Part shown: positions 1 through 18,488 of the stretch, piece after piece
Position numbering within the stretch: position 1 is the first letter of the stretch
Layout: every line of letters begins with the position of its first letter
DNA from: Candidatus Rokubacteria bacterium GWC2_70_16
GTDB lineage: Bacteria > Methylomirabilota > Methylomirabilia > Rokubacteriales > CSP1-6
Direction of reading: 5' to 3'
Assembly (NCBI GenBank): GCA_001788415.1
Contig: MGBV01000099.1
Coordinates: 34,430 to 68,270, forward strand
DNA length: 33,841 nucleotides
Notes under the pieces: model-generated
The model's database searches: none
What the model saw: the letters and a program-made list of their open reading frames with translations, nothing else
Told to the model about the DNA's origin: nothing
Program-made: the position numbers and the translations under genes

Positions 1-284
1 GCTCCCCGCCGGCCGCGGCCCTCAGGCGCCTTGAACCTGGGGCGGGCGCTTCAGGAAATTGATGTGTCAGGCCCATTGACCAGGTGCCGGGCGGGGAAGA
101 ATGTGGGCCAACATACCAGCAGAGTGAATGGGCCCATCAAGTCACCCAGGCCCGGCCCCGGAGGTGGACGGCAGGGCATTATCCCTCCTGACACGAACGT
201 GAACGGCCCCGCAGCCCGATGGAAGTCCTCGCTGCCGGGGATTGCCCGCGCGGCCGACGGGGCTGGCGCGGAGAGGGGGTGGCA

Positions 285-524
285 ATGGCGCAGCTGAGCG
301 CCGACCTGATGCTGGACTGCCGAGGGCTGGCCTGCCCTGTGCCGATCCTGAAGCTGTCCAAGGCCATCACTCAGATTCAGGCGGGGCAGATCATCGAGCT
401 CAGCGCCACCGACAGCGGCTCCCGGGACGACGTTCCTGCCTTCTGCCAGCGCACCGGCAACGCGCTGGTCTCCACCCGGGAGGAGGGCGGCGCCTTCATC
501 TTCTATGTCAGGAAGGGGCCCTGA
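285..524 (+). CDS. tusA: TusA/SirA-family sulfurtransferase
   Basis: LDCRGLACPVP (CPxP motif), 79 aa, ends FYVRKG; ATG at 285 after GAGAGGGGG, inside track ORF 219..524. Confidence 0.92.
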   Translation: MAQLSADLMLDCRGLACPVPILKLSKAITQIQAGQIIELSATDSGSRDDVPAFCQRTGNALVSTREEGGAFIFYVRKGP

Positions 525-545
525 GGGCGCCCCGCGGAGCTACGC

Positions 546-746
546 GTGTACATCGTCGCCATCGATCCTGAAGTCTGCAACGGCAACGGGGAATGCGTCC
601 AGGGATGCCCCGTGGCCATCCTGTCCGAAGAGGGCGAGGGCGACGAGAAGAAATGCGTCGTGAGCGGGGCCATAGCGGATTGCCTCGGCTGCATGGTCTG
701 CGTCGAGGTGTGCCCCACCGGCGCCATCAAGGTGGACGAGGTATAG
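546..746 (+). CDS. Small dicluster ferredoxin (probably 7Fe type)
   Basis: CNGNGECVQGCP and CLGCMVCVEVCP motifs; 66 aa; GGAG upstream of GTG start. Confidence 0.9.
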   Translation: MYIVAIDPEVCNGNGECVQGCPVAILSEEGEGDEKKCVVSGAIADCLGCMVCVEVCPTGAIKVDEV

Positions 747-751
747 GCGCA

Positions 752-2140
752 GTGCATATCCCCCGCCTGGTCATCTCAGCCCCCCATGGCCGGTCGGGCA
801 AGACCACCGTGGCGATAGGGCTGGCAGCCGCCTTCGCCCGGCGGGGGCTGAGGGTCCAGCCCTTCAAGAAGGGGCCGGACTACATCGACCCGAGCTGGCT
901 CGGCGAGGCCGCCGGCCGCCCCTGCCGGAACCTGGATCTCTTCCTGATGGATGCCGACAGGGCCCTGGAGACAGTGGCCTGCGCCTGCCAGTCGGCAGAC
1001 CTGGCCCTCGTCGAGGGCGCTCATGGCCTCTATGACGGGCTCGACGGGGACGGAGCCAATAGCACGGCCCGGCTGGCCAGGCTCCTCCAGGCGCCTGTCG
1101 TGCTCGTCGTGGACGCGACCCGGATGACCCAGAGCGTGGCCGCCCTGGTCCTGGGATTCCGGGACTTCGACCCCGGCGTCCAGCTCGCCGGCGTCATCGC
1201 GAACCAGGTGAGCAGCCCTCGCCACCGCGCCAAGCTGGCCGATGCCCTCGCCCGGCACACGGGCATCCCGCTCCTGGGCGCCCTGCCCCGGGACCCCTCG
1301 CTGTCGATCCCCGACCGCCACCTGGGGCTCGTCCCGAGAGACGAGGACGATGGGCTCCTCCCCGTGGTGGAGCGGGTCCGCGCCGCCGTGGAGGCCTCGG
1401 TGGACGTGGAGGCGCTGCTGGGTCTGGCCCGCGGCGCGCCGGCCCTGCCGGTGGGTCCGCATTGCCCTGAGCGAATGCCTCCCGCCCAGGTGAGGCTCGC
1501 CATCGCCAGAGACCGGGCCTTCACCTTCTACTACATGGAAAACATCGAGGCCCTGCGGGCGGCCGGGGCCGAGCTGGTCTGCCTGGACACGCTCGGGGAC
1601 GGGGCGCTTCCCGACGTCGACGGCCTGTACCTCGGCGGGGGCTTCCCGGAGATGTTCCTCGATGAGCTCGAGGCCAACGAGGCGCTCCGCGCGGACATCC
1701 GCGCAGCGGTTGGCGAGGGTCTGCCGGTCTATGCCGAGTGCGCGGGGCTCATGTACCTGGCTCGGCGCATCGCCTGGCGCGGCCGCTCGGCGGCCATGGT
1801 GGGGGCGCTGCCCTGCGACGTGGAGGTCACGGAAAGGCCCCAGGGGCACGGCTACGTGCGCGCGCGCGTCACGGGCGCGAACCCCTGCTTCCCGGTCGGG
1901 ACTGAGCTCCGCGGCCACGAGTTCCACTACTCCCGAGTGGTGAACCTGGGGCCGGCGCGCTTCGCCTATCGCCTGGAGCGCGGACAGGGCGTGGCCGACG
2001 GGCGGGACGGCCTGGTGGTGGGCAACGTGCTCGCCGCCTATACCCACCTGCACGCCGCCGGCACCGCGGGGTGGGCCGAGAGCCTCGTGGCCCAGGCGCG
2101 CGCCCACCAGGCCCGCCGGCCGGCCAGGGAGGCCCGATGA
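752..2140 (+). CDS. dsrN: Cobyrinate a,c-diamide synthase-like siroheme amidase DsrN
   Basis: GRSGKTT P-loop, FKKGPDYIDP, glutamine amidotransferase YAECAGLMYL and GHEFHYS; dsr operon context; GTG start at 752 inferred. Confidence 0.85.
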   Translation: MHIPRLVISAPHGRSGKTTVAIGLAAAFARRGLRVQPFKKGPDYIDPSWLGEAAGRPCRNLDLFLMDADRALETVACACQSADLALVEGAHGLYDGLDGDGANSTARLARLLQAPVVLVVDATRMTQSVAALVLGFRDFDPGVQLAGVIANQVSSPRHRAKLADALARHTGIPLLGALPRDPSLSIPDRHLGLVPRDEDDGLLPVVERVRAAVEASVDVEALLGLARGAPALPVGPHCPERMPPAQVRLAIARDRAFTFYYMENIEALRAAGAELVCLDTLGDGALPDVDGLYLGGGFPEMFLDELEANEALRADIRAAVGEGLPVYAECAGLMYLARRIAWRGRSAAMVGALPCDVEVTERPQGHGYVRARVTGANPCFPVGTELRGHEFHYSRVVNLGPARFAYRLERGQGVADGRDGLVVGNVLAAYTHLHAAGTAGWAESLVAQARAHQARRPAREAR

Positions 2141-2490
2141 AGATCGGGGTGATGGTCCAGGAGGGCCCGTATCAGCACCAGGCCTCCGACAGCGCCTGGG
2201 AGTTCGTCCAGGCGGCGCTCGCGCGGGGACACGAGGTCGTCGGCGTCTTCTTCTACACCGACGGCGTGCACAACGTGAACCGGTTCATGAACCCGCCGGG
2301 CGAGCGGGTGATCGGCAAGCGGTGGTCCGAGCTGGGGGCCCAGGGGGTGCCGCTGGTGGCGTGCGTCACCGACTCGACGTACCGGGGCGTCACCCAGGAG
2401 CTCGCCGTCGCCAACGTGAAGATCTCCGGGCTGGGCAGCCTGGCCGAGTTCATCCAGCAAGCCGACCGCTTCGTGACGTTCGGCGACTGA
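2137..2490 (+). CDS. dsrE: Sulfurtransferase complex subunit DsrE/TusD
   Basis: GPYQHQASDSA, VFFYTDGV, active-site Cys in LVACV, ISGLGSLAE...DRFVTFG; ATGA overlap with the dsrN stop. Confidence 0.92.
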   Translation: MKIGVMVQEGPYQHQASDSAWEFVQAALARGHEVVGVFFYTDGVHNVNRFMNPPGERVIGKRWSELGAQGVPLVACVTDSTYRGVTQELAVANVKISGLGSLAEFIQQADRFVTFGD

Positions 2491-2504
2491 GAGGGGGGAG
2501 CACA

Positions 2505-2813
2505 ATGAGGGGGGTCGGAGTTCTTGGCGTAACGCTTCTGGTTGTCCTTGCGTCGGTGGGCGTCTCGGCCCAGATGCCGATGGAACACAAAGGCACAATC
2601 TCGAAGATCGACACGAAGGCGAAGACCTTCGCCGTCAAGGACGAGAAGGGCAAGGAGGTGACGATGCACGCGGAGGATGTCAAGGCTTTGGCGGGCCTTC
2701 GGGTGGGTGACAAGGTCGTCGTGAAGATGACCGCGAAGGACGGGAAGAACATGGCCAAGGAGGTGCTGAAGGAAGCTACCGGACGGGCTCCCGCGCCTGG
2801 GTATGGAAAATGA
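2505..2813 (+). CDS. Small secreted Lys-rich beta-barrel (OB-fold-like) protein, possibly ExtJ-like partner of the cytochrome
   Basis: Signal peptide ending VSA; GTISKID...LRVGDKVVV pattern; GAGGGGGGAG RBS; ATG at 2505. Confidence 0.65.
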   Translation: MRGVGVLGVTLLVVLASVGVSAQMPMEHKGTISKIDTKAKTFAVKDEKGKEVTMHAEDVKALAGLRVGDKVVVKMTAKDGKNMAKEVLKEATGRAPAPGYGK

Positions 2814-2841
2814 CACGCTCCGCATTGCGAAGGAGGAAGTC

Positions 2842-4146
2842 ATGACGCCGCAATCCTCCGGCAAGACCGCCTGGGCCAGTGTCTCCTGGATCGGCGGACT
2901 CACCGTCTTGATGCTCGCTCTTCTCTCCCTTCCCGACGTCGCACTGGCTCAACAGAAAGCAAGAACGGTGGACGATCTCGCGAAGATGTACGACGTCGCC
3001 TCATGCAAGCAGTGCCACGCCAAGGTCTACGAGGAGTGGGAGAAGTCAACGCACGCGCGCTCCCTCATCGGAACCGGCCGGACCATCGGGGGATTCCAAG
3101 GAATGATCAGGGCCGGCCTCATGGGGGCATTCACGAAATCGGGGGTGAAGGATGTAGGGGACGTCAAAGTCGAGCACCTCGCGCAGTGTTTCAAGTGCCA
3201 TCTTCCGCAGATTTCGGATGCCACCGATGAGGTCGCGCGGGAACTCGTCAAGGCATACCTGGATGCTGATCGGGCCACGCTCGGCAAGGTCAACGTCAAC
3301 TGTCTCGTGTGCCACAACACGAAGGCGATTCTGCACAAGTGGCAGGATGGGGAGCCCGAGAAGGGCGTCGTCTACGGCTCCAAGGACGGTCCGCATCCCG
3401 ACAAGTACCCGGCGATGAAAAACAGCGTGGTCATGAAAGAGGCGGCGATGTGTGGCCAGTGCCACGGCACGGGGCCGAACTTCGAATTCCCGCAGCCTTC
3501 GCAGTGCGCGACCGCGTACGGGAGCTATCTCCACGCCTATATTCCCGCGGGCGGCACAGAGACGTGTCAGGACTGCCATATGAAGAAGGACGGCAAGGGG
3601 CACCTCATGCCCGCCTACCGCGACCCGGATATGGCGAAGAGGGCCGTGGATGTCGACGTGGAGGCGAGGGGATACAAGTTCCTGCTCAAGGCAGGGGACT
3701 CAATCCCGACAGCCGTGGTGACGGTGAAAATCACGAATAAGGCAGGGCATCGAATCCCTGATGGCTGACCCTCGCCCCAGAGAGCGGTCCTGGACGTGAC
3801 CGCGAAGACAAGCGATGGCAAAGAGATCTTCAGGGATTCAAAGATCTATATGCCGCAAGCCACCAATAGTCGTGGTGATGCGATGGTCTACGGGGCGCAC
3901 TTCAAGATGGGATATACCCGCGACACGAGCCTTCAGCCGCTTCAGACCAGGGTGGAGACCTACGAAATCAAGTTCCCGTATGAAGACGTCGAGAAGGAAA
4001 AGGGCAAACCCAGGGTGAGAGAGATACGGGCCAGGGAGATGGACGTGACGGTTGAGCTGCGGTACCAGCCTGATCCTGCGCCAGGTGAAGCGGGAAAGGA
4101 CAGTTTCGTTCTGCATAAGACGACGAAGAAAGTCAGCATCAAATAG
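2842..4146 (+). CDS. extKL: Periplasmic pentaheme cytochrome c selenoprotein (ExtKL-type), Sec at TGA 3766-3768 (residue 309 of 434)
   Basis: AGGAGG RBS then ATG 2842; signal peptide; five CxxCH (CKQCH, CFKCH, CLVCH, CGQCH, CQDCH); track ORFs 2803..3768 and 3796..4146 share a frame and are separated only by TGA in GHRIPDG*PSP; hairpin downstream. Confidence 0.85.
3784..3803 (+). promoter_or_regulatory. Putative bacterial SECIS element
   Basis: GCGGTC (3784-3789) pairs with GACCGC (3798-3803) around CTGGACGT, starting 15 nt after the in-frame TGA; C3790-G3796 pairing leaves apical loop UGGAC with G at position 2. Confidence 0.7.
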
Positions 4147-4164
4147 AGCGGCTGGGGGTGGTGT

Positions 4165-4587
4165 ATGGAAGATCTGTCGGGGCACGGTGAGCTCCAGGTG
4201 GAGCCCCGCGGGGCTCCACCGAAGAAGGTTTTGGTGCTGATGCGCAAGGCCCCTTATGGAACCCTCTACAACTGGGAGGGCCTGCAGGTGCTCCTCATCA
4301 TGGGGGCCTACAAGATGCAGGGTCTGGTGGACATCGCCGTGGCCTTCGTGGAGGACGGGGTCTTCGCGATCACCCAGGGGCAGGACCCGAGCAGCCTGGG
4401 GATGAAGGCGATCGCGAAGACCTACCCGGCGCTCCCGGACTTCGAGGTGGACCGCTTCTACGTCGACGGGCAGTCACTGGCCGATCGGAGCCTGACCCTG
4501 GATGACCTGGTGATCCAGCCCGAGATCCTCGACGCGGCGGGGATGGCCCGGCTCTTGGAGGAGCAGGACGCGGTCCTGCCGTTCTAG
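4165..4587 (+). CDS. dsrF: Sulfurtransferase complex subunit DsrF/TusC
   Basis: KKVLVLMRKAPYG...EGL, FVEDGVF, SLADRSL, ends DAVLPF; short N-terminal extension. Confidence 0.9.
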   Translation: MEDLSGHGELQVEPRGAPPKKVLVLMRKAPYGTLYNWEGLQVLLIMGAYKMQGLVDIAVAFVEDGVFAITQGQDPSSLGMKAIAKTYPALPDFEVDRFYVDGQSLADRSLTLDDLVIQPEILDAAGMARLLEEQDAVLPF

Positions 4588-4600
4588 AGGAGGCCGAGTG

Positions 4601-4894
4601 ATGCTCTTCACGGTGAACAAGTCGCCTTACCTGCACGGCAACCTGGAAGGCTGCCTGCGGCTGGCCCCGGCCGGGACGCCGCTCGTGCTCTACGAGGACG
4701 GGGTGTACGCGGCGGCGGCGGGCACGCGCGTGGAAGAGCTGATGCGCCAGGCCCTGGCCCGGCACCCCGTCTATGTGCTGGAAGCCGACCTCAGGGCCCG
4801 CGGGCTCGGGCGCCTGATCGAGGGCGTGCGGGTGATCGACTACGCGGGCTTCGTGGAGCTGGTGGAGCAGCATCCCGTGGTGCCCTGGCTGTGA
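4601..4894 (+). CDS. dsrH: Sulfurtransferase complex subunit DsrH/TusB
   Basis: MLFTVNKSP, LEGCLR, LYEDGVYAA, DLRARGL, IDYAGFVELV, ends WL; start is GTG 4598 or ATG 4601. Confidence 0.92.
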   Translation: MLFTVNKSPYLHGNLEGCLRLAPAGTPLVLYEDGVYAAAAGTRVEELMRQALARHPVYVLEADLRARGLGRLIEGVRVIDYAGFVELVEQHPVVPWL

Positions 4895-4930
4895 CAGGGA
4901 CCGGGCGGGCGGCGTAAGAGGAGAACGAGC

Positions 4931-6340
4931 ATGCTGGTGGTGCAGCTGGCGTGTCCCAAGTGCGGCTTCGTCATCGAGCAGTACCCGGCCGAGCAGCTCG
5001 AGACGGACTCCCAGAAGCAGAAGCGCTACCAGTACCTCCGGAAGAAGCAGACGCTCTGCCCGAGCTGCCTCACCCAGACCTCCAAGCTCGAGGAGCGCCG
5101 GGTGGAGGCCCAGGCCGGGGCCGAGGCGAGCGTGCTCGCGGCGGCCCAGGCGCCCGCCGAGGCCGGCGCCCCCGAGGCGGACGAGGGGCCGACGCCATTC
5201 TGCGACGAGCTCGGGCGGGGGCCCTGGCCGAGCCACGTGAGGGAGCTCAGGCGAACCCGCTACCACATGCAGATGTACGAGGAGGCCCTGAGGCTCCGCC
5301 AGACCCAGTGGGGCTTCGGCGGCTACGTCTCGCTGCCGGGGGTGGCCGCCGGGCTTGCGGTGCGCGCCTCGGCCCGCCCCGAGATCGCCAAGGGGGCCAA
5401 CTTCCTCCGGATCCTCCCTCCCGGCGGCAGCTTCTACTCCACCGAGACCCTCGGCAAGGTCTGCGACATCGCCGACCGCTACGCCTATGGCCTCCTGCAT
5501 CTGCACAGCACCGGCGGGAACATCGAGATCCTGGGGATCCCCACCGAGCAGCTCAAGGAGGTGGTCTCCGCCCTGAACGCCCAGGGGCTGGACGTGGGGT
5601 CCACCGGCGATGCCTACCGCAACACCGTGGAATGCGTCGGCCCGGCGCGCTGCGATGCGACCCTGATCGACACGCTCGGGATCCGCGACGCATGGTACCG
5701 GCGCTTCCTGGACGACGTGCAGTTCCCGCGCTTCCCCCACAAGCTCAAGATCAAGATCTCCGGCTGCCCTAACGACTGCACCCGCTCCGTCCAGAAGTCG
5801 TGCATCGCGCTCATCGGCGTCTTCCGCGACGCCCCGAAGATCGACCACGAGCGGCTGGCCGCCTGGGTCGAGGGGGGAGGCGACGCGGCCCACATCGCGC
5901 GGATGTGCCCGCCCCGGGCCCTTGACTGGGACGGGCGGCGGCTTGCGATCGACCAGGAGGCCTGCACCCACTGCATGTACTGCATCAACAAGTGCCCGGC
6001 CATCCGGCCGGGGGACGACCGCGGGGTGGCCGTGCTGGTGGGCGGGAAGCTCCGCGGCAAGTACGGCCCGCTCCTGGGACGGGTGCTGGTCCCCTTCGTT
6101 CCCTTGGCGCCGCCCGAGTACCGCGAGCTGTTCGACCTCCTCCACAGGATCGACGAGGTCTTCGACGAGCACGCCCGCCGGAAGGAGCGCCTGGGCGATT
6201 TCCTCTTCCGGATCGGGATGGACCAGTTCTCCCGGCTCGTGGGGATCGAGCCCTCGGCCCATCAGATGGCCGAGCCCCGGAGCAATGTCTTCTATCACTG
6301 GGCCGCCGGCCCGCCCGGCAGCGACGCGGCGGAGGTGTAG
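4931..6340 (+). CDS. dsrA: Dissimilatory sulfite reductase alpha subunit, copy 1 (divergent/basal type, N-terminal Cys4 extension)
   Basis: TPxCDELxxGPWPS, CVGPARC (CX5C) and GCPNDC (CX3C), FPHKLKIK, ferredoxin domain CTHCMYC, ERLGD, EPRSNVFY. Confidence 0.9.
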   Translation: MLVVQLACPKCGFVIEQYPAEQLETDSQKQKRYQYLRKKQTLCPSCLTQTSKLEERRVEAQAGAEASVLAAAQAPAEAGAPEADEGPTPFCDELGRGPWPSHVRELRRTRYHMQMYEEALRLRQTQWGFGGYVSLPGVAAGLAVRASARPEIAKGANFLRILPPGGSFYSTETLGKVCDIADRYAYGLLHLHSTGGNIEILGIPTEQLKEVVSALNAQGLDVGSTGDAYRNTVECVGPARCDATLIDTLGIRDAWYRRFLDDVQFPRFPHKLKIKISGCPNDCTRSVQKSCIALIGVFRDAPKIDHERLAAWVEGGGDAAHIARMCPPRALDWDGRRLAIDQEACTHCMYCINKCPAIRPGDDRGVAVLVGGKLRGKYGPLLGRVLVPFVPLAPPEYRELFDLLHRIDEVFDEHARRKERLGDFLFRIGMDQFSRLVGIEPSAHQMAEPRSNVFYHWAAGPPGSDAAEV

Positions 6341-6342
6341 CC

Positions 6343-7395
6343 ATGCCCGGAATCGGCGTCGCGCCAATGGAAGCGAATCTCCCTCCCATCGTGAGGCGCA
6401 ATTACGGCGCGTGGGTGTGGCACGAGGTGATCCGGCCCGGCGTCCTGAAGCACGTGTCGAAGAGCGGGGAGGCCTGCTTCACCGTGCGAGCGGGGATGCC
6501 CCCCAACGCCCGGGTGTCGACCGCGCTCGCCCGCCGGATCTGCGAGGTGGCCAACCGGTTCTGCGGCGGCTACCTCCGCATCACCCGGCGCCACAGCCTG
6601 GAGCTGGTGGGGGTGGCCGAGGCCGAGCTCGGCGCGGCGATCGCGGCGCTCCGCGAGATCGGGCTGGCGGTGGGGGGGGCCGATCGCACCTTCCACAACA
6701 TCGTCTGCTGCACGGGCTGGATCCATTGCCAGTTCGCCGCCACCGATGCGCCCGCCATCGCCAAGGCGATCTCGGACGGGCTCTGGGAGGATTTCCAGTC
6801 GGAGGGGTACCCGGCCAAGCTGAAGATCTCCATCGCCGCCTGTGTCAACCAGTGCGGCGAGGGCTCCACTGCCGACATCGGGGTGATCGGCATCCATCGC
6901 GACCTGCCGCGGGTCAACGACGCGGAGGTGGCGAAGTGCGAGGTGCCGCTGATCGTCTCCATCTGCCCCACCGGCGCCATCCGTCCGAAGCCCCCCAAGA
7001 GCGTGCAGGTGGACCCCAGGCGCTGCATCCACTGCGTGGCCTGCGTGGGGCAATGCGTCGGCATGCCCATCGGGGACCCCGAGACCGACGGCGTGGCGAT
7101 CTACGTCGGCGGCAAGGCCGGCAACCAGGGGAGCGGCCCCGCCTTCGGCAAGCTGGCGATCCCGTATCTGCCCAACCGCCCGCCGCGCTGGCCGGAGGTC
7201 GTCCAGGCCGTGACGGGCATCATCGGGGTGTGGACGAAGGGGGCCCGGAGGGACGAGCGCATCGGCGACTGGATCAGCCGGATCGGCTGGGAGCGCTTCT
7301 TCGACAAGACAGGGCTGCCGGTGAGCGACAAGCACCTGGACGGCTATGTCCTCTGGCCCATGGCGGCGCGCACCGGGGTGCGGTTCCGCTGGTAG
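6343..7395 (+). CDS. dsrB: Dissimilatory sulfite reductase beta subunit, copy 1
   Basis: LPPIVRRNYGAW..HE...PGVLKHV, GWIHC, CVNQCG, CIHCVAC, PPRWPE, RIGWERFF; ATG 6343 after GGAGG. Confidence 0.92.
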   Translation: MPGIGVAPMEANLPPIVRRNYGAWVWHEVIRPGVLKHVSKSGEACFTVRAGMPPNARVSTALARRICEVANRFCGGYLRITRRHSLELVGVAEAELGAAIAALREIGLAVGGADRTFHNIVCCTGWIHCQFAATDAPAIAKAISDGLWEDFQSEGYPAKLKISIAACVNQCGEGSTADIGVIGIHRDLPRVNDAEVAKCEVPLIVSICPTGAIRPKPPKSVQVDPRRCIHCVACVGQCVGMPIGDPETDGVAIYVGGKAGNQGSGPAFGKLAIPYLPNRPPRWPEVVQAVTGIIGVWTKGARRDERIGDWISRIGWERFFDKTGLPVSDKHLDGYVLWPMAARTGVRFRW

Positions 7396-7443
7396 GCCAA
7401 CCCCGCGCATGACGGGAGGGGACACGGTGAGGAGAGAGCGACG

Positions 7444-9908: not shown

Positions 9909-9941
9909 CTCAGGTCCCTCGCACGAGAGGAGAGAACGGCC

Positions 9942-10259
9942 ATGGCGACGGTAGAGCTCGAAGGCAAGACGATGGAGCTGGACGAGGATGGGTTCCTGCA
10001 GAATCCGGATCTCTGGTCCGAGACGGTGGCCCAGTACTTCGCCGACCAGGAGGGGCTGGGGCAGCTCACGGACGAGCACTGGAAGGTGGTGAAGATGATC
10101 CGCGGCTACTACCTGCAGTTCGGCGTCGCCCCCATGATCCGCAAGGTCGTCAAGGACACCGGCTTCGACCTCAAGTACATCTACCAGCTCTTCCCCTCGG
10201 GGCCGGCCAAGGGGGCCTGCAAGGTCGCCGGGCTCCCCAAGCCCACGGGCTGCGTGTAG
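9942..10259 (+). CDS. dsrC: Sulfur carrier DsrC with both C-terminal cysteines
   Basis: DEDGFL, LTDEHW, LFPSGPAKGACKVAGLPKPTGCV (CX10C). Confidence 0.97.
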   Translation: MATVELEGKTMELDEDGFLQNPDLWSETVAQYFADQEGLGQLTDEHWKVVKMIRGYYLQFGVAPMIRKVVKDTGFDLKYIYQLFPSGPAKGACKVAGLPKPTGCV

Positions 10260-10275
10260 GCGGGCGGAGGCTCGG

Positions 10276-10851
10276 GTGACGCTGCCCGCGGGCGCCCGCG
10301 CGGCGGGCGGGCCAGGTCTCGAGGCGCTGGCGGCACGGCGGAGCGCCATTGCCGGCCGGTGGCTGGCGCTGACGCTCGAGGGCTACCCGGCCCCCACCGC
10401 GCGCCTGCTGGCGCGCGAGACGGACCCCTTCCGCAACCCCGTCGGGCACACCCTCAGGCAGGCGCTGTCTGGCCTCGCGGAGGAGCTTGTCGGGGCCATG
10501 GACCCCGCCAGGGTCGCCGCCCTCCTGGACAGCGTCGTGAGGATCCGCGCCGTCCAGGACGTGAGCGCGAAGGAGGCGGTGAGCTTCGTGTTCCTGGCCA
10601 GGCAGGCCCTTCGCGAAGAGATCGACAGCGGCGGGGGACTGCCGGCCGGAGACGGGCTGGCGGCCGTGGAGGCGCGGGTCGACGAGATGGCGCTCTCGGC
10701 CTTCGACCTGTTCATGCGCTGCCGCGAGCAGATCCACGCGATCCGGGCCGACGAGGCCCGACGCCGGACGGCTCTCCTGGACCGCATCCGCGAGCGGGCC
10801 GGCCGGCCCGGGAGCGAGCCCGCCGGGGCGGACCCGGGAACTGCGCCGTGA
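10276..10851 (+). CDS. dsrT: DsrT (RsbRD N-terminal-domain protein)
   Basis: W...YP, DPFRNPVG, VRIRAVQD, AVSFVF, AFDLFMRCRE; directly upstream of dsrM. Confidence 0.88.
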   Translation: MTLPAGARAAGGPGLEALAARRSAIAGRWLALTLEGYPAPTARLLARETDPFRNPVGHTLRQALSGLAEELVGAMDPARVAALLDSVVRIRAVQDVSAKEAVSFVFLARQALREEIDSGGGLPAGDGLAAVEARVDEMALSAFDLFMRCREQIHAIRADEARRRTALLDRIRERAGRPGSEPAGADPGTAP

Positions 10852-11840
10852 GCGCGCTGGCCCCCCTGGCCCTCGTCCTGCTCCTGGCCGGGCTGGCCCT
10901 GGCCGGCGGGCAGTTCTCCGGGCTCCGCCCCGTGCTCGGCGTGCTCCTCCCCTACGCGGCCTTCGTCACCTTCCTCCTCGGGGTGTGCCATCGCATCCTC
11001 GTGTGGGTGCGAGCGCCTGTCCCCTTCCGCATCCCCACCACCTGCGGCCAGCAGCGCTCCCTGCCCTGGATCAGGCAGAGCCGCATCGAGAACCCGTCCT
11101 CGACAGCTGGCGTCGTGGCGCGCATGGCGCTGGAGGTGTGTCTGTTCCGGTCGCTGCTCCGCGGCAGCCGGGCCGAGCTGCGGGAAGGGCCCCGGCTGGT
11201 GTACGCCGACGACCGGCTCCTGTGGCTGGCGGCGCTGGCCTTCCACTGGTCGCTTCTCGTCGTCGTCCTGAGACACCTGCGCTTCGTCCTGGAGCCAGTG
11301 CCCGCGGCGATCCGCACGCTGGCCGCGGTGGACGGGTTCTTCCAGCTGGGCGCCCCGGGGCTCTACGCCACGGATGTCGTCCTCGTGGCCGCGCTGGGCT
11401 ATCTCCTCTGGCGGAGGCTCGCAAACCCGCAGCTCCGGTACCTGTCGCTGTCCGCCGACTACTTCGCGCTCTACCTGCTGCTGGGGCTGGCCGCCTCCGG
11501 CCTGCTCATGCGGCATGTGGTCCGGACGGACGTCGTGGCGGTGAAGCAGCTCGCCCTCGGCCTCGTGACCCTGTCCCCCATTGTCCCCGAGGGCGTGGGC
11601 TCCCTGGCGCTCCTGCACCTCGTCCTCCTGAGCACGCTCGCCGCCTACTTCCCCTTCAGCAAGCTCATGCACATGGGCGGCATCTTCCTGAGCCCGACGC
11701 GGAACCTGGCCAATACGAGCCGGGCGCATCGCCACGTCAACCCCTGGAACGCGCCCGTCGCCACCCACAGCTACGAGGAGTGGGAGGACGAGTTCCGGGA
11801 CAAGATCAGGGCGGCCGGCCTGCCGCTCGAGAAGGGATAG
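10848..11840 (+). CDS. dsrM: DsrM, NarI-like membrane cytochrome b
   Basis: PVPFRIPTTCGQQ, FHWSL..LRHLR, YFPFSKLMHMGGIFLSPTRN, YEEWEDEFR; GTGA overlap with dsrT. Confidence 0.93.
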   Translation: MSALAPLALVLLLAGLALAGGQFSGLRPVLGVLLPYAAFVTFLLGVCHRILVWVRAPVPFRIPTTCGQQRSLPWIRQSRIENPSSTAGVVARMALEVCLFRSLLRGSRAELREGPRLVYADDRLLWLAALAFHWSLLVVVLRHLRFVLEPVPAAIRTLAAVDGFFQLGAPGLYATDVVLVAALGYLLWRRLANPQLRYLSLSADYFALYLLLGLAASGLLMRHVVRTDVVAVKQLALGLVTLSPIVPEGVGSLALLHLVLLSTLAAYFPFSKLMHMGGIFLSPTRNLANTSRAHRHVNPWNAPVATHSYEEWEDEFRDKIRAAGLPLEKG

Positions 11841-11842
11841 CC

Positions 11843-13462
11843 ATGGCGGAAGAGGCCCCGGCCCCCGCGCAGCTCGCGCAGGTCGACTACCGGCCGCCGG
11901 CGCGGGACTGGCGGGAGGCCGCCGTCGACTTCCGCAAGGGGACCTACTGCTACAGCGCCGCGCCCAAGAACCTCCAGTACCTGGGGCTGCCCAATCCGCG
12001 ACCGTGGCAGCCCCACGACGCGGACTGGAAGCTCCCCCCCGACTGGAAGCAGACCATCCTCGCGGGCATGAAGGACAGGCTCGAGCGCTTCCGGTCCTTC
12101 CGCCTGTTCATGGACATCTGCGTGCGCTGCGGGGCCTGCGCCGACAAGTGCCACTTCTACCTCGGCACCGGCGACCCCAAGAACATGCCGGTGTTGAGGG
12201 CCGAGCTGATGCGCTCGGTGTACCGGCGCTACTTCACCCTGCCCGGCCGGCTGCTGGGCGGGCTCGCGGGCGGGCGGGAGCTCACCGAGGACGTGCTCAA
12301 GGAGTGGTTCTACTACTACCACCAGTGCACGGAGTGCCGCCGCTGCTCGGTCTTCTGCCCCTTCGGGATCGACACGGCGGAAGTGACCATGATGGGGCGC
12401 GAGCTGCTGACCCTGGTGGGCTGCAACATCAACTGGATCCTCGAGCCGGCGGCGAATTGCTACCGGACGGGCAACCACCTCGGGATCCAGCCCCATGCCT
12501 TCAAGGACAGCGTCGACTTCGCCGTGGACGAGCTGGAGGAGATGACCGGCATCCGCGTGGAGGCTCCCATCAACAAGAAGGGCGCCGAGATCCTGTACGT
12601 GATCCCGTCGGCGGAGACCTTCGGGACGCCCCACTACTACACGCTCCTGGGCACGCTGCTCCTCTTCCACGCCATCGGTCTGGACTACACGCTCAGCGCG
12701 TATGCCTCCGAGGGCGGCAACTTCGGCCTCTTCACCTCCCACGAGGTGATGAAGCGGCTGAACGCCAAGATCTACGCCGAGGCCCGGCGGCTGGGGGTCA
12801 AGTGGATCCTCGGCGGCGAGTGCGGCCACATGTGGCGCGTCGTGCACCAGTACATGGACACCATGAACGGCCCGGCGGACTTCCTGGAGGAGCCCGTCTC
12901 GCCGGTGACGGGCACGCGGTTCGAGCAGGCGCGGTCCACGAAGATGGTGCACATCTGCGAGTTCACGGCCGATCTCATCCGCGAGGGCAAGCTCCGGCTC
13001 GACCCCCGGCGGAACGACCACTGGGTCGCGACCTTCCACGACTCCTGCAACCCGGCCCGGGCCATGGGGCTCCTCGAGGAGCCGCGCTACATCCTCCGGA
13101 GCGTGTGCCAGCGCTTCCACGAGATGCCCGAGAGCACCATCCGGGAGCGGACCTTCTGCTGCGGCAGCGGGTCGGGTCTCGGCACGGACGAGAATTTCGA
13201 GATGCGCATGCGGGGCGGCTTCCCCCGGGCCAATGCCGTGAGGCATGTGCAAGACCGGTTCGGCGTGAACCTGGTGGCGTGCATCTGCGCCATCGACAAG
13301 GCCACGCTCCCGCCGCTCCTGGAGTACTGGGTGCCGGGGATGAACGTGGCCGGCGTGCACGAGCTCGTGGGCAATGCCCTCGTGGTCGACGGCGAGAAGG
13401 CGCGGACCCAGGACCTGCGCGGCCAGCCCCTGGTCTCGCCGGAGGCACCCGCCGGTGCGTGA
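11843..13462 (+). CDS. dsrK: DsrK, HdrD-like Fe-S protein
   Basis: CVRCGACADKCH, CTECRRCSVFCP, GECGH, FHDSCN, FCCGSG; ATG at 11843. Confidence 0.95.
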   Translation: MAEEAPAPAQLAQVDYRPPARDWREAAVDFRKGTYCYSAAPKNLQYLGLPNPRPWQPHDADWKLPPDWKQTILAGMKDRLERFRSFRLFMDICVRCGACADKCHFYLGTGDPKNMPVLRAELMRSVYRRYFTLPGRLLGGLAGGRELTEDVLKEWFYYYHQCTECRRCSVFCPFGIDTAEVTMMGRELLTLVGCNINWILEPAANCYRTGNHLGIQPHAFKDSVDFAVDELEEMTGIRVEAPINKKGAEILYVIPSAETFGTPHYYTLLGTLLLFHAIGLDYTLSAYASEGGNFGLFTSHEVMKRLNAKIYAEARRLGVKWILGGECGHMWRVVHQYMDTMNGPADFLEEPVSPVTGTRFEQARSTKMVHICEFTADLIREGKLRLDPRRNDHWVATFHDSCNPARAMGLLEEPRYILRSVCQRFHEMPESTIRERTFCCGSGSGLGTDENFEMRMRGGFPRANAVRHVQDRFGVNLVACICAIDKATLPPLLEYWVPGMNVAGVHELVGNALVVDGEKARTQDLRGQPLVSPEAPAGA

Positions 13463-13850
13463 CCGGGGTTTGCTGGTCGGCGGCCTGGCCCTCTTCGTGG
13501 CCGTGATCACCTTCCCGGTCTGGTACAACGTCGCCGCCGGGACGCCCACGCGGGGCCCCGAGCCCGTGCGCCCCGCCGGGACCGGGCGCTGCGTTGGGCC
13601 CACGGAGTACATGCGCGCTTCCCACATGAGCCTGCTCATGGCGTGGCGCGACGACGTGGTGCGAGGGCAGGACCGCAACTTCGTGGGCCCCGACGGGAAG
13701 ACCTACGCCAAGAGCCTCACGCGCACCTGTCTCGGCTGTCACACCAGCAAGGCGGAGTTCTGCGACCGCTGCCACGACTACGGCGCCGTGAAGCTCACCT
13801 GCTGGGAGTGCCACATCGACCCCGCCTCACTCCGGAAGGCTCAGCGATGA
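13455..13850 (+). CDS. dsrJ: DsrJ triheme cytochrome c
   Basis: N-terminal TM helix, CV...YMRASHM..L..WRDDVVR, CLGCH, CDRCH, CWECH; GGAGG then GTG 13455. Confidence 0.92.
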   Translation: MRDRGLLVGGLALFVAVITFPVWYNVAAGTPTRGPEPVRPAGTGRCVGPTEYMRASHMSLLMAWRDDVVRGQDRNFVGPDGKTYAKSLTRTCLGCHTSKAEFCDRCHDYGAVKLTCWECHIDPASLRKAQR

Positions 13851-14614
13851 GCATGGATCGCCGGGCTTTCCTGGGCGCGGCCGGGCTCTCCGCGCTGGCC
13901 ATGACCGGGACCCAGTCCCTCGAGGCCCTGGCCGGCGCCGGCCGCCCGGAGACAACGCCCGAGGGGCGCCGCGCCCCGCGCTGGGGCATGGTCATCGATC
14001 TGCGGAAATGCCTCGAGGACCGGGGCTGCACCGATTGCATCGCCGCCTGCGAACGCGCGCACAACGTGCCGCGGCTCGAGTCGCGGGCCCACGAGGTGAA
14101 GTGGATCTGGCGGGAGCCCTACGAGCGGGCCTTCGCCCAGCGCGGGAGCGGGTACGGGGACGAGGCCCTCAGGGGCAAGCGCGTCCCCGTGCTCTGCAAC
14201 CACTGCGACAATCCCCCGTGCGTGCGCGTGTGCCCCGTCAAGGCCACGTGGAAGCGGGGAGACGGCATCGTCATGATGGACTGGCACCGCTGCATCGGCT
14301 GCCGCTACTGCATGGCGGCCTGTCCCTACGGGGCGCGGAGCTTCAACTGGCTCGACCCGCGCCCCCGGGTCAAGGAGGTGAACCCGGATTTCCCCACGCG
14401 GACCAGAGGGGTCGTCGAGAAATGCAACTTCTGCGAGGAGCGGCTCGCCCAGGGGCGCGGGCCGGCCTGCGTGGAGGCGTGCCGGGAGCGGGCCCTGACT
14501 TTCGGGGACCTGCGGGACCCCGGCTCGGAGGTGCGCGGGCTCTTGCGGAGCCGTCACGCCATGAGGCGGAAGCCCGAGCTCGGCACCGAGCCGAGCGTCT
14601 ACTACCTGGCATGA
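13847..14614 (+). CDS. dsrO: DsrO periplasmic Fe-S protein
   Basis: Tat signal DRRAFLG, RWGMVIDL, CNHCDNPPCVRVCP, CIGCRYCMAACP, KCNFC. Confidence 0.93.
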   Translation: MSMDRRAFLGAAGLSALAMTGTQSLEALAGAGRPETTPEGRRAPRWGMVIDLRKCLEDRGCTDCIAACERAHNVPRLESRAHEVKWIWREPYERAFAQRGSGYGDEALRGKRVPVLCNHCDNPPCVRVCPVKATWKRGDGIVMMDWHRCIGCRYCMAACPYGARSFNWLDPRPRVKEVNPDFPTRTRGVVEKCNFCEERLAQGRGPACVEACRERALTFGDLRDPGSEVRGLLRSRHAMRRKPELGTEPSVYYLA

Positions 14615-14632
14615 GGAGGCAGGGAGGCGGCC

Positions 14633-15832
14633 GTGCTTGACAAGGGGCTCAGTGGGGGCGGGCGGTACTGGGCCTGGCTCGGCGCCCTGGCCGCGCTGAT
14701 CGTCGCGGGCGCGCTGGCCTACCAGCGGCAGCTCACGCTGGGGCTGGGGATCACGGGGCTGAGCCGGGATGTGACCTGGGGTCTCTACATCGCCCAGTTC
14801 ACCTTCCTGGTCGGGGTCGCGGCCTCGGCCGTCGTGGTGGTCCTGCCCTATTACCTGCACGACTACCGCGTCTTCGGCAAGATCACGATCCTCGGCGAAT
14901 GCCTCGCCGTCTCCGCCGTGGCCATGTGCCTGCTCTTCGTCTTCGTGGACATGGGCCAGCCCGCGCGCGCGCTGAACGTGCTCCTGTACCCGACGCCCAA
15001 CTCCATCATGTTCTGGGACATGCTCGTGCTCGCCGGCTACCTGGCGCTCAACGCCGTCATCGCCCGGGCCACGCTCTCGGCCGAGCACCGGGGCGTGCCG
15101 CCGCCCCGGTGGCTCCGGCCCGTCATCGTGCTCTCCATTCCCTGGGCCGTCAGCATCCACACGGTCACGGCGTTCCTGTACAGCGGGCTCCCCGGACGGC
15201 ACCTGTGGCTGACCGCGCTCCTGGCGCCGCGCTTCCTCGCCTCGGCCTTCGCCTCGGGGCCCGCCCTGCTGATCCTCCTGGCCATGCTCCTCCGCCGACT
15301 CACGGGCTTCGACGTCGGCCGGGAGGCCCTCCAGAAGCTCGGGCTGATCGTCGCCTACACGATGACCGTCAACGTGTTCTTCGTGCTGGTGGAGCTCTTC
15401 ACGGTCTTCTACAGCCAGGCGCCCGAGGCGATGCACCACTTCGAGTTCCTGTTCCTCGGACTCGAGGGCCAGGCGGGGCTGGTCCCGTGGATGTGGGCCT
15501 CGGTGGTCCTGGCCATGATGTCGCTGGGCCTGCTCCTCACGCCGCGCTGCCGCCAGGACATGCGGCTCCTGGCCGCCGCCTGCGCCATGGTGTTCGCCTC
15601 GCTGTGGATGGACAAGGGCCTCGGCCTCATCGTCGGCGGCTTCGTGCCCTCGCCCCTGGGAGAGGTGACGGGCTACGCCCCGACGCTGCCGGAGGTCGCC
15701 ATCGCGCTCGCCATCTGGGCCGTGGGCTCGCTGCTGGCCACCGTGCTCTTCAAGGTCGTCGCCGCCGTGAGGGGGGAGCCGAGTGGCCCCGACCCCCACT
15801 CCCGCTGGGCCCGGGCCCCCGTCGAGCCATGA
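14633..15832 (+). CDS. dsrP: DsrP, NrfD/PsrC-family membrane protein
   Basis: TGLSRDVTWGLYIAQFTFLVGVAA, SIPWAVSIHTVTAFL, RFLASAF; polytopic hydrophobic protein. Confidence 0.93.
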   Translation: MLDKGLSGGGRYWAWLGALAALIVAGALAYQRQLTLGLGITGLSRDVTWGLYIAQFTFLVGVAASAVVVVLPYYLHDYRVFGKITILGECLAVSAVAMCLLFVFVDMGQPARALNVLLYPTPNSIMFWDMLVLAGYLALNAVIARATLSAEHRGVPPPRWLRPVIVLSIPWAVSIHTVTAFLYSGLPGRHLWLTALLAPRFLASAFASGPALLILLAMLLRRLTGFDVGREALQKLGLIVAYTMTVNVFFVLVELFTVFYSQAPEAMHHFEFLFLGLEGQAGLVPWMWASVVLAMMSLGLLLTPRCRQDMRLLAAACAMVFASLWMDKGLGLIVGGFVPSPLGEVTGYAPTLPEVAIALAIWAVGSLLATVLFKVVAAVRGEPSGPDPHSRWARAPVEP

Positions 15833-16326
15833 AGGTCAGGCGCGAGAGCAAGTACGGCCTCCTCGGCCTGATCTTCCTGGCCCAGCAGGCGCCCGGCCGC
15901 GTGGTCGGGCTCAAGGAGATCGCGGCGCGCCAGGGGCTGCCCGAGCACTTCCTGGCCAAGATCTTCCCGAAATTCGTCCGCTACCGGCTGGTGAGGGCCT
16001 ACCGCGGCGCCACGCGAGGGTATGCCCTGGCGCGGGCCCCGGAGCACATCAAGCTCCGCGAAATTCTCGAGGCCATCGAGGGGCCCGAGGTGACCAACCA
16101 GTGCTTCTTCTGGGGCAGCGAGTGCGACGTGACCAACCCCTGCCCCGTGCATTGCCGGTGGAGAGAGATCCGGCCCTGGATCACCGACATCCTCGAGCGG
16201 ACCACGCTGCAGGAGCTGATCCTCAAGCAGTTGATGGTGAACGAGGTCACGGGCAAGGAGCGAGGGCCCGCTGACAGCCCCGCCGCGCCGGCCCGGATCG
16301 GTGAGCAGGCCTCAGGGAGCCCCTGA
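15829..16326 (+). CDS. Rrf2-family (IscR/NsrR-like) transcriptional regulator
   Basis: KYGL, LKEIA...LP..FLAKI, RG..RGYALAR, LREILEAIEG, C-X6-C-X5-C-PVH; ATGA overlap with dsrP. Confidence 0.9.
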   Translation: MKVRRESKYGLLGLIFLAQQAPGRVVGLKEIAARQGLPEHFLAKIFPKFVRYRLVRAYRGATRGYALARAPEHIKLREILEAIEGPEVTNQCFFWGSECDVTNPCPVHCRWREIRPWITDILERTTLQELILKQLMVNEVTGKERGPADSPAAPARIGEQASGSP

Positions 16327-16329
16327 CGG

Positions 16330-16959
16330 ATGGGCAGCTATCCGGTGTGCCTCGAGCTTGCGGGCCAGCCCTGTCTCGTCATCGGCGGCGGGCCCGTCGC
16401 GGAGCGGAAGGTCGAGGGCCTCCTGGCCGCGGGGGCGGCGGTGACCGTCGTGAGCCCTTCGCTGACGGCCGGCCTGGCGGCCCTGGCCCGCGGGGGGCGG
16501 ATCCGCCACCTGCCGCGCGAGTACGGGCCCGGGGATGTGGCCGGAAACCGGCTCACCCTTGCCGCCACCGGGAAGCGCGAGGTCGATGCGGCAGCCAGCC
16601 GCGAGGGCCGCGAGCGCGGCGTCTGGGTCAATGCCGCGGATGCTCCCGATCTTTGCGACTTCACCCTCCCGGCGGTGCTCCGTCGCGGTGACCTCGTGGT
16701 GGCCGTGTCCACCGGGGGGGCGAGCCCCGCGCTGGCGCGAGCGGTCAGGGAGGAGCTCGAGGGCCACCTCCCCGAAGCGTATGCCGCGCTCGCCGACATC
16801 GTCGCCGAGGTCAGGCGGGAGCTGAGGCAGCGCGCCTGCTCCCCCGGCGGAGAGGCGTGGCGCCAGGCTCTCGACGCCGATCTCCGCCGGCTGGTCGCGG
16901 AGGGACGACGGGCGGAGGCGAAGGCCAGGCTCCTGGCGAGGCTCGCCCCATGCCCGTAG
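16330..16959 (+). CDS. Precorrin-2 dehydrogenase / sirohydrochlorin ferrochelatase (CysG N-terminal / SirC-like)
   Basis: YPVCL, VIGGGPVAERK, VNAAD.P.LCDF..PA, AVSTGGASP. Confidence 0.9.
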   Translation: MGSYPVCLELAGQPCLVIGGGPVAERKVEGLLAAGAAVTVVSPSLTAGLAALARGGRIRHLPREYGPGDVAGNRLTLAATGKREVDAAASREGRERGVWVNAADAPDLCDFTLPAVLRRGDLVVAVSTGGASPALARAVREELEGHLPEAYAALADIVAEVRRELRQRACSPGGEAWRQALDADLRRLVAEGRRAEAKARLLARLAPCP

Positions 16960-17729
16960 GCCCCGTGTATCTGGTCGGCGCAGGTCCCGGCGATCCAGGG
17001 CTCCTCACGGTGCGAGGCCTGGAGCTCCTGCGCCAGGCGGAGGTGGTGGTCTACGACCGCCTGGTCAATCCGGCCCTCCTGGAGGAAGCCCCCAGCGAGG
17101 CGATCCGGATCTTCGCCGGCAAGCTCACGGCCATCCACAGCCTGCCTCAGGAGGAGATCAACGCCCTCCTCATCGCGCATGCCCGCCGCGGCCGGCGCGT
17201 GGTCAGGCTCAAGGGCGGGGATCCCTTCGTCTTCGGCCGGGGCGGCGAGGAGGCCGAGGCCCTCCTGGCGGCAGGGATCTCCTTCGAGGTCGTGCCCGGC
17301 GTCAGCTCCGCCGTCGCGGTTCCCGCCTACGCCGGCATCCCGGTCACCCATCGGGGCCTGGCCTGCTCCTTCGCCGTGATCACCGGCCATGAGGACACCG
17401 GCAAGGGCCAGCCCGCCGTGGACTGGAAGCGGCTCGCGACGGCCGTGGACACGCTCGTCATCCTCATGGGCGTGACGGCCCTGCCCGGAATCGTGGCCGA
17501 TCTCCTCGCCGGCGGCCTGTCACCGGAGACCCCCGTCGCCCTCATCCGGTGGGGAACCACGGCGGCCCAGCAGACGATCACCGGCACCCTCGGAGACATC
17601 CTCCCACGGGCGACAGGGCTTGCGCCTCCCGTCGTCGTCGTCGTCGGTGAGGTCGTCGCGCTCGGCCACCGGCTCCAGTGGTTCGAGGCCGCCGCCGGGG
17701 CCATCCCCCTCCCCGCGCTGGCCACCTGA
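16950..17729 (+). CDS. cobA: Uroporphyrinogen-III C-methyltransferase
   Basis: VYLVGAGPGDPGLLT, VVYDRLV, VVRLKGGDPFVFGRGGEE, VPGVSS, GIPVTHR. Confidence 0.95.
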   Translation: MPVGPVYLVGAGPGDPGLLTVRGLELLRQAEVVVYDRLVNPALLEEAPSEAIRIFAGKLTAIHSLPQEEINALLIAHARRGRRVVRLKGGDPFVFGRGGEEAEALLAAGISFEVVPGVSSAVAVPAYAGIPVTHRGLACSFAVITGHEDTGKGQPAVDWKRLATAVDTLVILMGVTALPGIVADLLAGGLSPETPVALIRWGTTAAQQTITGTLGDILPRATGLAPPVVVVVGEVVALGHRLQWFEAAAGAIPLPALAT

Positions 17730-18487: not shown

Positions 18488-18488
18488 G

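Follow-up and report, generated by a model that had tools for sequence, protein, structure and literature searches.

The 33,841-nt stretch analysed here (the window; positions 34430-68270 of contig C99 of genome G000) contains the dsr operon of a metagenome-assembled genome (MAG) of Candidatus Rokubacteria (Methylomirabilota), whose core is the known "chimeric" Dsr system of these bacteria. What appears to be new is a two-gene cassette lodged between dsrE and dsrF, composed of orfX and of the gene of a pentahaem cytochrome selenoprotein of the MccSep family, and the co-occurrence of this cassette with a tandem extra sulfite reductase pair, dsrA1-dsrB1. Tentatively, and with a little less than even confidence, we take the organism to be in the main a sulfur oxidiser whose sulfur passes through sulfane sulfur, the gene content suggesting the direction of flux. 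The source MAG (4.7-Mb, 309 contigs, ~70% G+C) has a completeness of 87% and a contamination of 5%, so that the absence of a gene from it weighs little. Genes were called from the codon-position G+C together with Pfam and NCBIfam profile searches.

The operon forms a single co-directional string of genes on the + strand (285-17729), in which neighbours overlap or are at most 49 nt apart. An earlier note on this DNA had described such a tightly coupled cluster from the letters alone and had listed its genes. The profile searches found every listed component on the + strand, and the gene identities are established. One entry of that list is refined: dsrE, dsrF and dsrH are all present, with dsrE split from dsrFH by two inserted genes. 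A consensus scan for terminator-like sites gave one site on the + strand, inside tusA, and four sites in all (4.5 are expected by chance). The mixture of markers pointed out in the note is also real, TusA and DsrEFH of oxidisers standing together with DsrT of reducers and with a DsrMKJOP of the sulfate-reducer equivalog type. The window has DsrEFH with DsrT, where the oxidative-pathway signature is DsrEFH present and DsrT absent; it has DsrEFH with no DsrD found, where the sulfate-reducer signature is DsrD present and DsrEFH absent. Within the window, each dsrB is followed directly by a gene other than dsrD (dsrA2 or dsrC), and no dsrL was found.

This mosaic is not novel in itself: the Rokubacteria system is already in print. 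Anantharaman 2018 (PMC6018805) reported deep-branching DsrAB, dsrEFH, dsrT and apr/sat/qmo without dsrD in Rokubacteria and qualified the system as "of mosaic evolutionary origin". The dsr systems of Rokubacteria and Chloroflexi were termed chimeric by Neukirchen 2023 (PMC10504309), in whose trees the Rokubacteria DsrC, DsrM and DsrK are found among reductive types and DsrN as a neighbour of that of sulfur oxidisers. According to Diao 2023 (PMC10591310), neither dsrD nor dsrL occurs in Methylomirabilota. As in this Rokubacteria-type system, dsrEFH, dsrT and dsrMKJOP are all contained in one cluster of the window. Its gene order matches that of three loci from named Candidatus Rokubacteria MAGs (L001-L003, L002 being CSP1-6): tusA-fdx-dsrN-dsrEFH-dsrAB-dsrC-dsrT-dsrMKJOP-rrf2-sirC-methyltransferase. 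The identities with these loci are 88-93% for DsrA2, 90-96% for DsrB2 and 54-90% for the other proteins (54-58% for DsrT and the gene at the same position). With the MAGs CSP1-6 and GWA2_70_23 (PMC6018805) the window shares the order, DsrA2B2 at 88-96% identity, and apr/sat/qmo elsewhere in the genome; as in them, dsrL is lacking and no dsrD was found. In L083, from the same genus as the window genome, DsrA2 and DsrB2 are 97 and 96% identical and the nucleotide identity is 91-94%. TusA is 65-97% identical across the Rokubacteria loci, and the ferredoxin gene occupies the same place in L001, L003 and L083-L086. The differences are additions: in L001 dsrE is followed directly by dsrF and there is a single dsrAB, whereas the window has orfX and mccSep at this junction and dsrA1B1 besides; L002 retains a dsrB of the copy-1 type at its contig end.

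The cassette starts 14 nt after dsrE and ends 18 nt before dsrF, with a G+C of 0.63 against ~0.70 around it. A chimeric assembly of the insert is ruled out by contigs of several runs and by four metagenome loci with the same arrangement (L086, L087, L105 and L107). A 2032-nt contig of run X1, possibly from the source sample, covers the whole insert without mismatch, and contigs from runs of other studies bridge dsrE-orfX (X7, 2296-2571) and mccSep-dsrF (X3, 3967-4293). A read joint skipping 2446-5089 in X3 and X4 was disregarded; it has 20 letters on the shorter side and likely comes from relatives. The first gene, orfX, gives only sub-threshold matches to small beta-barrel Pfam families; its dN/dS (ratio of nonsynonymous to synonymous substitution rates) is 0.19, and copies 82-83% identical lie upstream of MccSep in L086 and L107.

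The protein encoded by the second gene is matched by the profile NF040886 with 521.7 bits over residues 26-423 of 423 when the TGA is read through (cut-off 250), and with 395.7 bits for the part before the TGA alone. The MccSep structures of Geobacter sulfurreducens (PDB 9wt8 and 9wt9) are matched over the full length at E 1e-120. Translation probably starts at ATG 2842, which is preceded by an AAGGAGG and gives a signal peptide ending in ALA and followed by QQ; residue numbers are nevertheless counted from the upstream ATG at 2803. In the alignment, C235 corresponds to the distal haem-2 ligand C239 of the Geobacter protein (ExtKL, GSU2937-2936) and D-G-U322-P to D323-G324-U325-P326. Both proteins have the same five haem c motifs, and 18/18 aligned homologs, the window included, keep all five CxxCH as well as C235 and the DGUP loop unchanged. 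The Geobacter MccSep, characterised in 2025, works in the periplasm as a homotetramer that reduces polysulfide, and the respiration of elemental sulfur (S0) requires it; C239 ligates its haem 2, and U325 is needed for catalysis. Most members of the family come from taxa with known sulfur reduction or disproportionation, mainly Desulfobacterota and Nitrospirota (bioRxiv 10.1101/2025.11.18.688581). The window cytochrome therefore belongs to the MccSep family by its sequence, and a polysulfide reductase role is predicted for it. The earlier guess of a periplasmic polysulfide redox step by a selenocysteine (Sec) cytochrome gains real backing here, since the sole characterised member of the family has this activity and the catalytic residues are intact. 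The surroundings of the two genes are different: in Geobacter the gene is part of extHIJKLMNOPQS, where bc-type genes and those of a porin and a rhodanese-like protein accompany it, and here it is inside a dsr operon. A small gene of ~100 codons lies directly upstream in both (ExtJ there, orfX here), the two corresponding by position.

The decoding of the in-frame UGA as Sec is established. The codon lies in the context PDG*PS, and a TGA occupies this position in 79/79 related metagenome loci; the part of mccSep downstream of it has a dN/dS of 0.034. The SECIS-like (selenocysteine insertion sequence) hairpin 17 nt after the UGA has 0 broken pairs in 38 sequences and 2 pairs with compensatory changes in RNAalifold. 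It is weak when taken alone, and its single-sequence fold is no better than that of shuffles (z 0.45). SelB (371.7 bits) and a tRNA-Sec are encoded together on contig C150 of G000. ARAGORN called two tRNA-Sec, one beside selB (C150 4854-4951) and one on contig C180 (2934-3015); the latter may be a false call or a contamination.

The distribution of the arrangement was surveyed in 251 genomes of the phylum and in 80 metagenome loci with MccSep relatives. MccSep is embedded in dsr genes in 4/80 metagenome loci, and the architecture is present in one of the five genomes with Rokubacteria-type dsr, which answers the question of the note on how widely it is shared. L086 contains a complete tusA...dsrB2 string with both additions at 83-93% identity, and the three other loci contain the junctions. 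In these four loci MccSep is at least 81% identical to that of the window, and the dsr-linked proteins represent at least three sequence-distinct lineages (100%, ~89% and ~81% identical). The relatives at 77-79% on contigs long enough to judge (L091 and L113) are not dsr-linked. MccSep homologs were found in 4/251 genomes of the phylum, and that of G171 (80% identical) does not adjoin dsr genes. The conservation of the arrangement is established, and its genes are under purifying selection (dN/dS 0.03-0.23). Since all embedded loci are at or above 81% and the relatives at 77-79% are unlinked, MccSep in the dsr operon is a recent recruitment that a small groundwater and soil subclade of Rokubacteria has retained.

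The dsrE-dsrF junction acts like a slot in which the periplasmic partner varies. It is empty in L001 and L084. In L003 (8078-9259) and L085 it holds a secreted protein of 393 aa with a C-terminal CxxCH and without Pfam or NCBIfam family, and in L083 (about 4830-7358; genome G223) a protein of this type together with a monohaem cytochrome c and a SCO1/SenC-like protein. The pair orfX-mccSep occurs in the window alone among the named and same-genus relatives compared. That the slot of relatives contains only secreted redox proteins argues for its being functional. For the 393-aa protein, an atlas search gave a YncE/cytochrome-d1-like beta-propeller as lead. In the literature we found neither MccSep in a dsr operon nor its co-occurrence with tandem dsrAB, and supplements may hold more. 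The main text of the MccSep preprint contains no "dsr", "Rokubacteria" or "Methylomirabilota", its Supplementary Datasets 1 and 2 possibly listing Methylomirabilota homologs; the present data thus extend the range of MccSep to a phylum, with populations of soil and groundwater, that this text does not name. In PMC6018805 we found no mention of a second Rokubacteria dsrAB or of a selenoprotein, and its supplementary tables and figures may list a second dsrAB copy.

The two dsrAB pairs are, by sequence and phylogeny, paralogous isoenzymes of one early-diverging clade. DsrA1 and DsrA2 are 67% identical, DsrB1 and DsrB2 75%. Both copies are inside one clade of Rokubacteria and Chloroflexota (98-99 in the Shimodaira-Hasegawa-like approximate likelihood ratio test, SH-aLRT), where copy 2 clusters with the named Rokubacteria DsrAB (SH-aLRT 100). 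Our trees were made without oxidative or reductive references, the early-diverging position of this clade being taken from papers; the Rokubacteria DsrAB lie outside the oxidative clade in published trees (PMC6018805, PMC10504309). A combination of one oxidative and one reductive pair is ruled out by the 67/75% identity and the shared clade. As paralogs of one clade, the two pairs provide no direct argument for a switch of direction, for which the note had invoked them. The trees disagree on copy 1: it is placed beside the Rokubacteria copy 2 in the DsrB tree (SH-aLRT 80) and beside Chloroflexota in the concatenated quick tree (support 83), and the approximately unbiased test does not reject a single Rokubacteria clade (p 0.278). 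Orthologs of copy 1 are found in L086 (83-85%) and, as the partial dsrB at the contig end, in L002 (85%). All the columns that are invariant in 22 homologs, cluster cysteines included, are kept in both copies, which are under purifying selection (dN/dS 0.12-0.23; 0.22-0.23 for dsrA1-dsrB1). A DsrA-like match was detected in 14/251 genomes of the phylum, 5 of them of the Rokubacteria type, and G000 is the only one of these 5 with two full dsrAB copies. The dsrB1-dsrA2 junction is supported by the assembly itself, L086 and L002, with no bridging contig among the pieces listed. Diao 2023 (PMC10591310) described MAGs in which a single contig carries two types of DsrAB; these too have more than one dsrAB pair in one region together with dsrEFH. 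Theirs are a reductive and an oxidative pair, each with its own dsrD or dsrL, whereas those of the window are close paralogs.

Two observations were made on DsrA and DsrAB sequences. Both DsrA copies begin with an extension of ~90 residues (window 4931-5200 and 7444-7715) that precedes the TIGR02064 match. Its cysteines C8, C11, C43 and C46 are invariant in 22/22 homologs from Rokubacteria, Chloroflexota, Verrucomicrobiota and Planctomycetota; zinc-ribbon Pfam families match it below threshold only, and shorter relatives of 375-400 aa do not have it. It might bind metal or serve as the point of electron entry in DsrAB lineages that have neither DsrD nor DsrL. Besides, nine genomes of the same class and another family (L067-L075, genus g61) encode a different DsrAB without this extension (~37% identical to the window for DsrA, ~45-48% for DsrB), which fits the multiple acquisitions of dsrAB in Methylomirabilota reported by Diao 2023 (PMC10591310).

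Other sulfur genes were found on several contigs of G000. Contig C233 carries sat (383 bits), aprB and aprA (960 bits). Behind aprA come genes of two HdrA-like flavoproteins and of an FeS protein, which are named qmo by position and domains alone. It also carries soxY, soxZ, a SoxA-type cytochrome gene and soxB (787 bits); the set of the genome is soxXAYZB, with no SoxC match over the cut-off in G000. The presence of sat, apr, qmo and sox genes, left to be searched by the note, is hence confirmed. Genes of a lipoate-protein ligase and of a dienelactone-hydrolase-family protein stand between the qmo-like genes and soxYZ (L059 8729-9835). COX1 matches over the cut-off were obtained on four contigs (C244, C235, C148 and C178). 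RuBisCO was not found in G000, nor were further copies of dsrAB, dsrC or dsrEFH. About 6-11 kb upstream of the operon (C99 23205-28701; L051 8775-14271) there are genes for a rhodanese of two domains, for a DsrE-like protein and for a YeeE/YedE-type sulfur transporter, this last followed by a TusA-like gene; the region also has a 127-aa open reading frame (ORF) without family.

The lack of dsrD behind dsrB, noticed earlier, stands. Genome-wide, DsrD (PF08679) has no match in G000 or in the same-genus genomes G221 and G223 (94% and 98% complete), in a search where no control genome matched either. For DsrL, also reported as missing, G000 has two GltD-type matches only, and neither is taken for a DsrL. 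The match on C207 is an open frame of 485 aa, the length of a plain GltD small subunit. The 558-aa protein on C178 (L061 175-1854) shows the domain order of DsrL (N-terminal Fer4_20, FAD/NAD(P) domain and C-terminal 2x[4Fe-4S]). Its gene is flanked by those of the gamma and alpha subunits of a 2-oxoacid:ferredoxin oxidoreductase, and it is excluded by criterion 3 of Loffler 2020.

The direction of the Rokubacteria-type Dsr is disputed in print: its owners are considered oxidisers by Anantharaman 2018, Rokubacteria are held to be unlikely sulfur oxidisers by Loffler 2020, and Diao 2023 points out that the organisms in culture with early-diverging DsrAB reduce. We favour oxidation because Sox without SoxCD, TusA, rhodanese and DsrEFH, AprBA-Sat and the oxidases constitute the complement of an oxidiser. 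In the periplasm, the truncated Sox would turn thiosulfate and sulfide into sulfane sulfur or polysulfide, and MccSep might shorten or mobilise polysulfide or S0 there. The sulfane sulfur would then enter a cytoplasmic relay from rhodanese/YeeE/TusA to DsrEFH and DsrC, DsrAB would oxidise it to sulfite, and AprBA-Sat sulfite to sulfate. DsrMKJOP would tie the chemistry of DsrC to the quinone pool and, by the periplasmic DsrJ, to periplasmic cytochromes possibly including MccSep. In favour of oxidation are also the relay genes themselves (DsrEFH, TusA, and the upstream rhodanese, DsrE-like and YeeE genes) with no DsrD match, and the slot of the same-genus genome, which has a cytochrome c and a SCO1-like protein instead. 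The oxidative cluster of Allochromatium vinosum has the order dsrABEFHCMKLJOPNRS. The window shares with it TusA, DsrEFH, DsrC, DsrMKJOP and DsrN, as well as their combination with SoxCD-less Sox and AprBA/Sat; it differs by the lack of DsrL, the presence of DsrT and the location of dsrEFH upstream of dsrAB.

Several points weigh against an oxidiser. DsrL, not found in G000, is essential in Allochromatium (PMC10591310), DsrT is present, and the DsrMKJOP proteins match NCBI sulfate-reduction equivalogs. The published placement of Rokubacteria DsrC, DsrM and DsrK among reductive types (PMC10504309), the reductive metabolism of those organisms in culture that have early-diverging DsrAB (PMC10591310) and the judgement of Loffler 2020 point the same way, as does the only demonstrated activity of MccSep, which is reductive (bioRxiv 10.1101/2025.11.18.688581). 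The operon ferredoxin would be an awkward electron acceptor for the oxidation of sulfane sulfur. To this are added the missing RuBisCO, and the DsrD search without positive control in a MAG of the completeness given above.

A disproportionation of S0 or polysulfide, or a switchable pathway, is a serious rival, though a less probable one. The operon would hold both half-reactions: TusA-DsrEFH-DsrC-DsrAB-AprBA-Sat would oxidise, and the electrons would pass by DsrMKJOP and DsrJ to MccSep, which would reduce polysulfide to sulfide. This model, close to what the note had proposed, is mechanistically coherent, and its periplasmic half has a biochemical precedent in the Geobacter enzyme. It would account for the presence, in one operon, of DsrEFH, DsrC, DsrAB and DsrMKJOP along with a polysulfide reductase homolog whose catalytic residues are intact, a join kept in the three or more lineages mentioned above, in a protein family found mostly in sulfur-reducing or disproportionating taxa (bioRxiv 10.1101/2025.11.18.688581). 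The cytochrome c and SCO1-like genes in the slot of relatives also fit a swap of the periplasmic electron partner. However, DsrEFH is not known to be needed by any disproportionator in culture, and the transfer of electrons from DsrJ to MccSep is purely hypothetical. According to Anantharaman 2018 (PMC6018805), gene content cannot separate disproportionators from reducers, and the rule used there for disproportionators needs dsrD. Sox and the oxidases are explicable by a plain oxidiser. The polysulfide part of the earlier proposal has been strengthened; the truncated Sox, sat-aprBA-qmo and haem-copper oxidases make the genome more oxidiser-like and less like that of a dedicated disproportionator.

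A bolder form of this idea, which we hold to be unlikely, is that the operon is a self-contained machine for the disproportionation of S0/polysulfide, with electrons flowing from DsrMKJOP by DsrJ to MccSep, and that the variable slot sets the periplasmic acceptor of the Dsr pathway. To our knowledge, the periplasmic partner of DsrJ has not been identified. If the idea is true, the slot proteins (MccSep, the beta-propeller haem protein, the cytochrome c and the SCO1-like protein) would name the first physiological one. The position of MccSep between dsrE and dsrF in any case offers a testable hypothesis, in which periplasmic polysulfide chemistry is coupled by DsrMKJOP to the cytoplasmic DsrC/DsrAB cycle.

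A reductive metabolism is rather improbable. Sulfite or sulfate would be respired with Sat-AprBA-Qmo, DsrAB, DsrC and DsrMKJOP, MccSep would add the respiration of S0 or polysulfide, and DsrEFH and TusA would have another role in sulfur transfer. The reductive type of DsrC and of the DsrMKJOP components (PMC10504309), DsrT, the ferredoxin encoded in the operon, the sat-aprBA-qmo genes, the grouping of DsrAB with those of cultured reducers (PMC10591310) and the essential function of MccSep in the S0 respiration of Geobacter (bioRxiv 10.1101/2025.11.18.688581) are all consistent with it. They are opposed by DsrEFH with TusA, rhodanese and DsrE-like protein, by SoxXAYZB and several haem-copper oxidases, and by DsrD, the typical activator of reducers, not having been found in the search without positive control.

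Finally, it is very improbable that the cassette is a passenger, recently inserted in a permissive slot under a borrowed promoter with a role unrelated to Dsr, such as the selenite reduction also performed by the Geobacter MccSep (bioRxiv 10.1101/2025.11.18.688581): its lower G+C, the variability of the slot in relatives (empty, one gene or three genes) and the unlinked nearest relatives at 77-80% identity (G171, L091, L113) would suit an insertion, but the same insertion is retained in L086, L087, L105 and L107 with dN/dS of 0.03-0.19, its spacing to dsrE and dsrF is tight, and the contents of the slot in relatives are all secreted redox proteins.

Features of the dsr operon in the window, with the matches on which the assignments are based
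Feature	Position	Strand	Evidence
tusA, sulfur carrier, CPxP cysteine motif	219..524 (alternative start 285)	+	Pfam TusA 81 bits
2x[4Fe-4S] ferredoxin	546..746	+	Fer4 families
dsrN, CobB-like sirohaem a,c-diamide synthase	752..2140	+	NF002204 471 bits; CbiA and GATase_3 domains
dsrE (TusD family)	2137..2490	+	TIGR03012 96.8 bits (cut-off 89.25)
orfX, small secreted Lys-rich protein, first cassette gene	2505..2813	+	signal-peptide-like N-terminus
mccSep/extKL, pentahaem c-type cytochrome selenoprotein	2842..4146 (ATG 2803 also open)	+	NF040886 521.7 bits
UGA read as selenocysteine (U322)	3766..3768	+	TGA at the codon in 79/79 related loci
SECIS-like hairpin, 5-bp stem, 8-nt loop	3785..3802	+	RNAalifold on 38 sequences
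dsrF (TusC family)	4165..4587	+	TIGR03010 93.9 bits, just under cut-off 94.15; Pfam DsrE 69 bits
dsrH (TusB family)	4601..4894	+	TIGR03011 87.6 bits; Pfam DsrH 88 bits
dsrA1-dsrB1, extra sulfite reductase pair	4931..7395 (dsrA1 4931-6340, dsrB1 6343-7395)	+	DsrA1 TIGR02064 326 bits, under cut-off 392.85; DsrB1 TIGR02066 368 bits, over cut-off 341.5
dsrA2-dsrB2, ortholog of published Rokubacteria DsrAB	7444..9908 (dsrA2 7444-8856, dsrB2 8856-9908)	+	
dsrC, two C-terminal cysteines	9942..10259	+	Pfam DsrC 133 bits; C-terminus CKVAGLPKPTGCV (C-x10-C-V)
dsrT	10276..10851	+	RsbRD_N 58 bits
dsrMKJOP membrane complex	10848..15832	+	NCBIfam equivalogs, all five over cut-offs (NF038037 488, NF045796 717, NF038038 140, NF045797 310, NF045798 448 bits)
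Rrf2-family regulator	15829..16326	+	Pfam Rrf2 99.8 bits
sirC-like precorrin-2 dehydrogenase	16330..16959	+	NAD_binding_7 and Sirohm_synth_M
uroporphyrinogen-III methyltransferase	16950..17729	+	TP_methylase 187 bits

On the upstream side, runs of N are found at 34206-34218 and 34340-34429 of contig C99, within the 230 bases before the window, with a dip of the G+C to 0.57; the promoter region of the operon is thus incompletely assembled. The ORF at 1-297 of the window has a poor codon bias and no family, and the divergent gene upstream encodes a glycosyltransferase. Behind the operon, the region 17909-26198 contains an isochorismatase-family gene, an ORF with a weak S-layer-like match and, on the minus strand, genes for an SLT transglycosylase with DUF4124, lon, dnaJ and dnaK. 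These are ordinary housekeeping genes that mark the end of the sulfur cluster.

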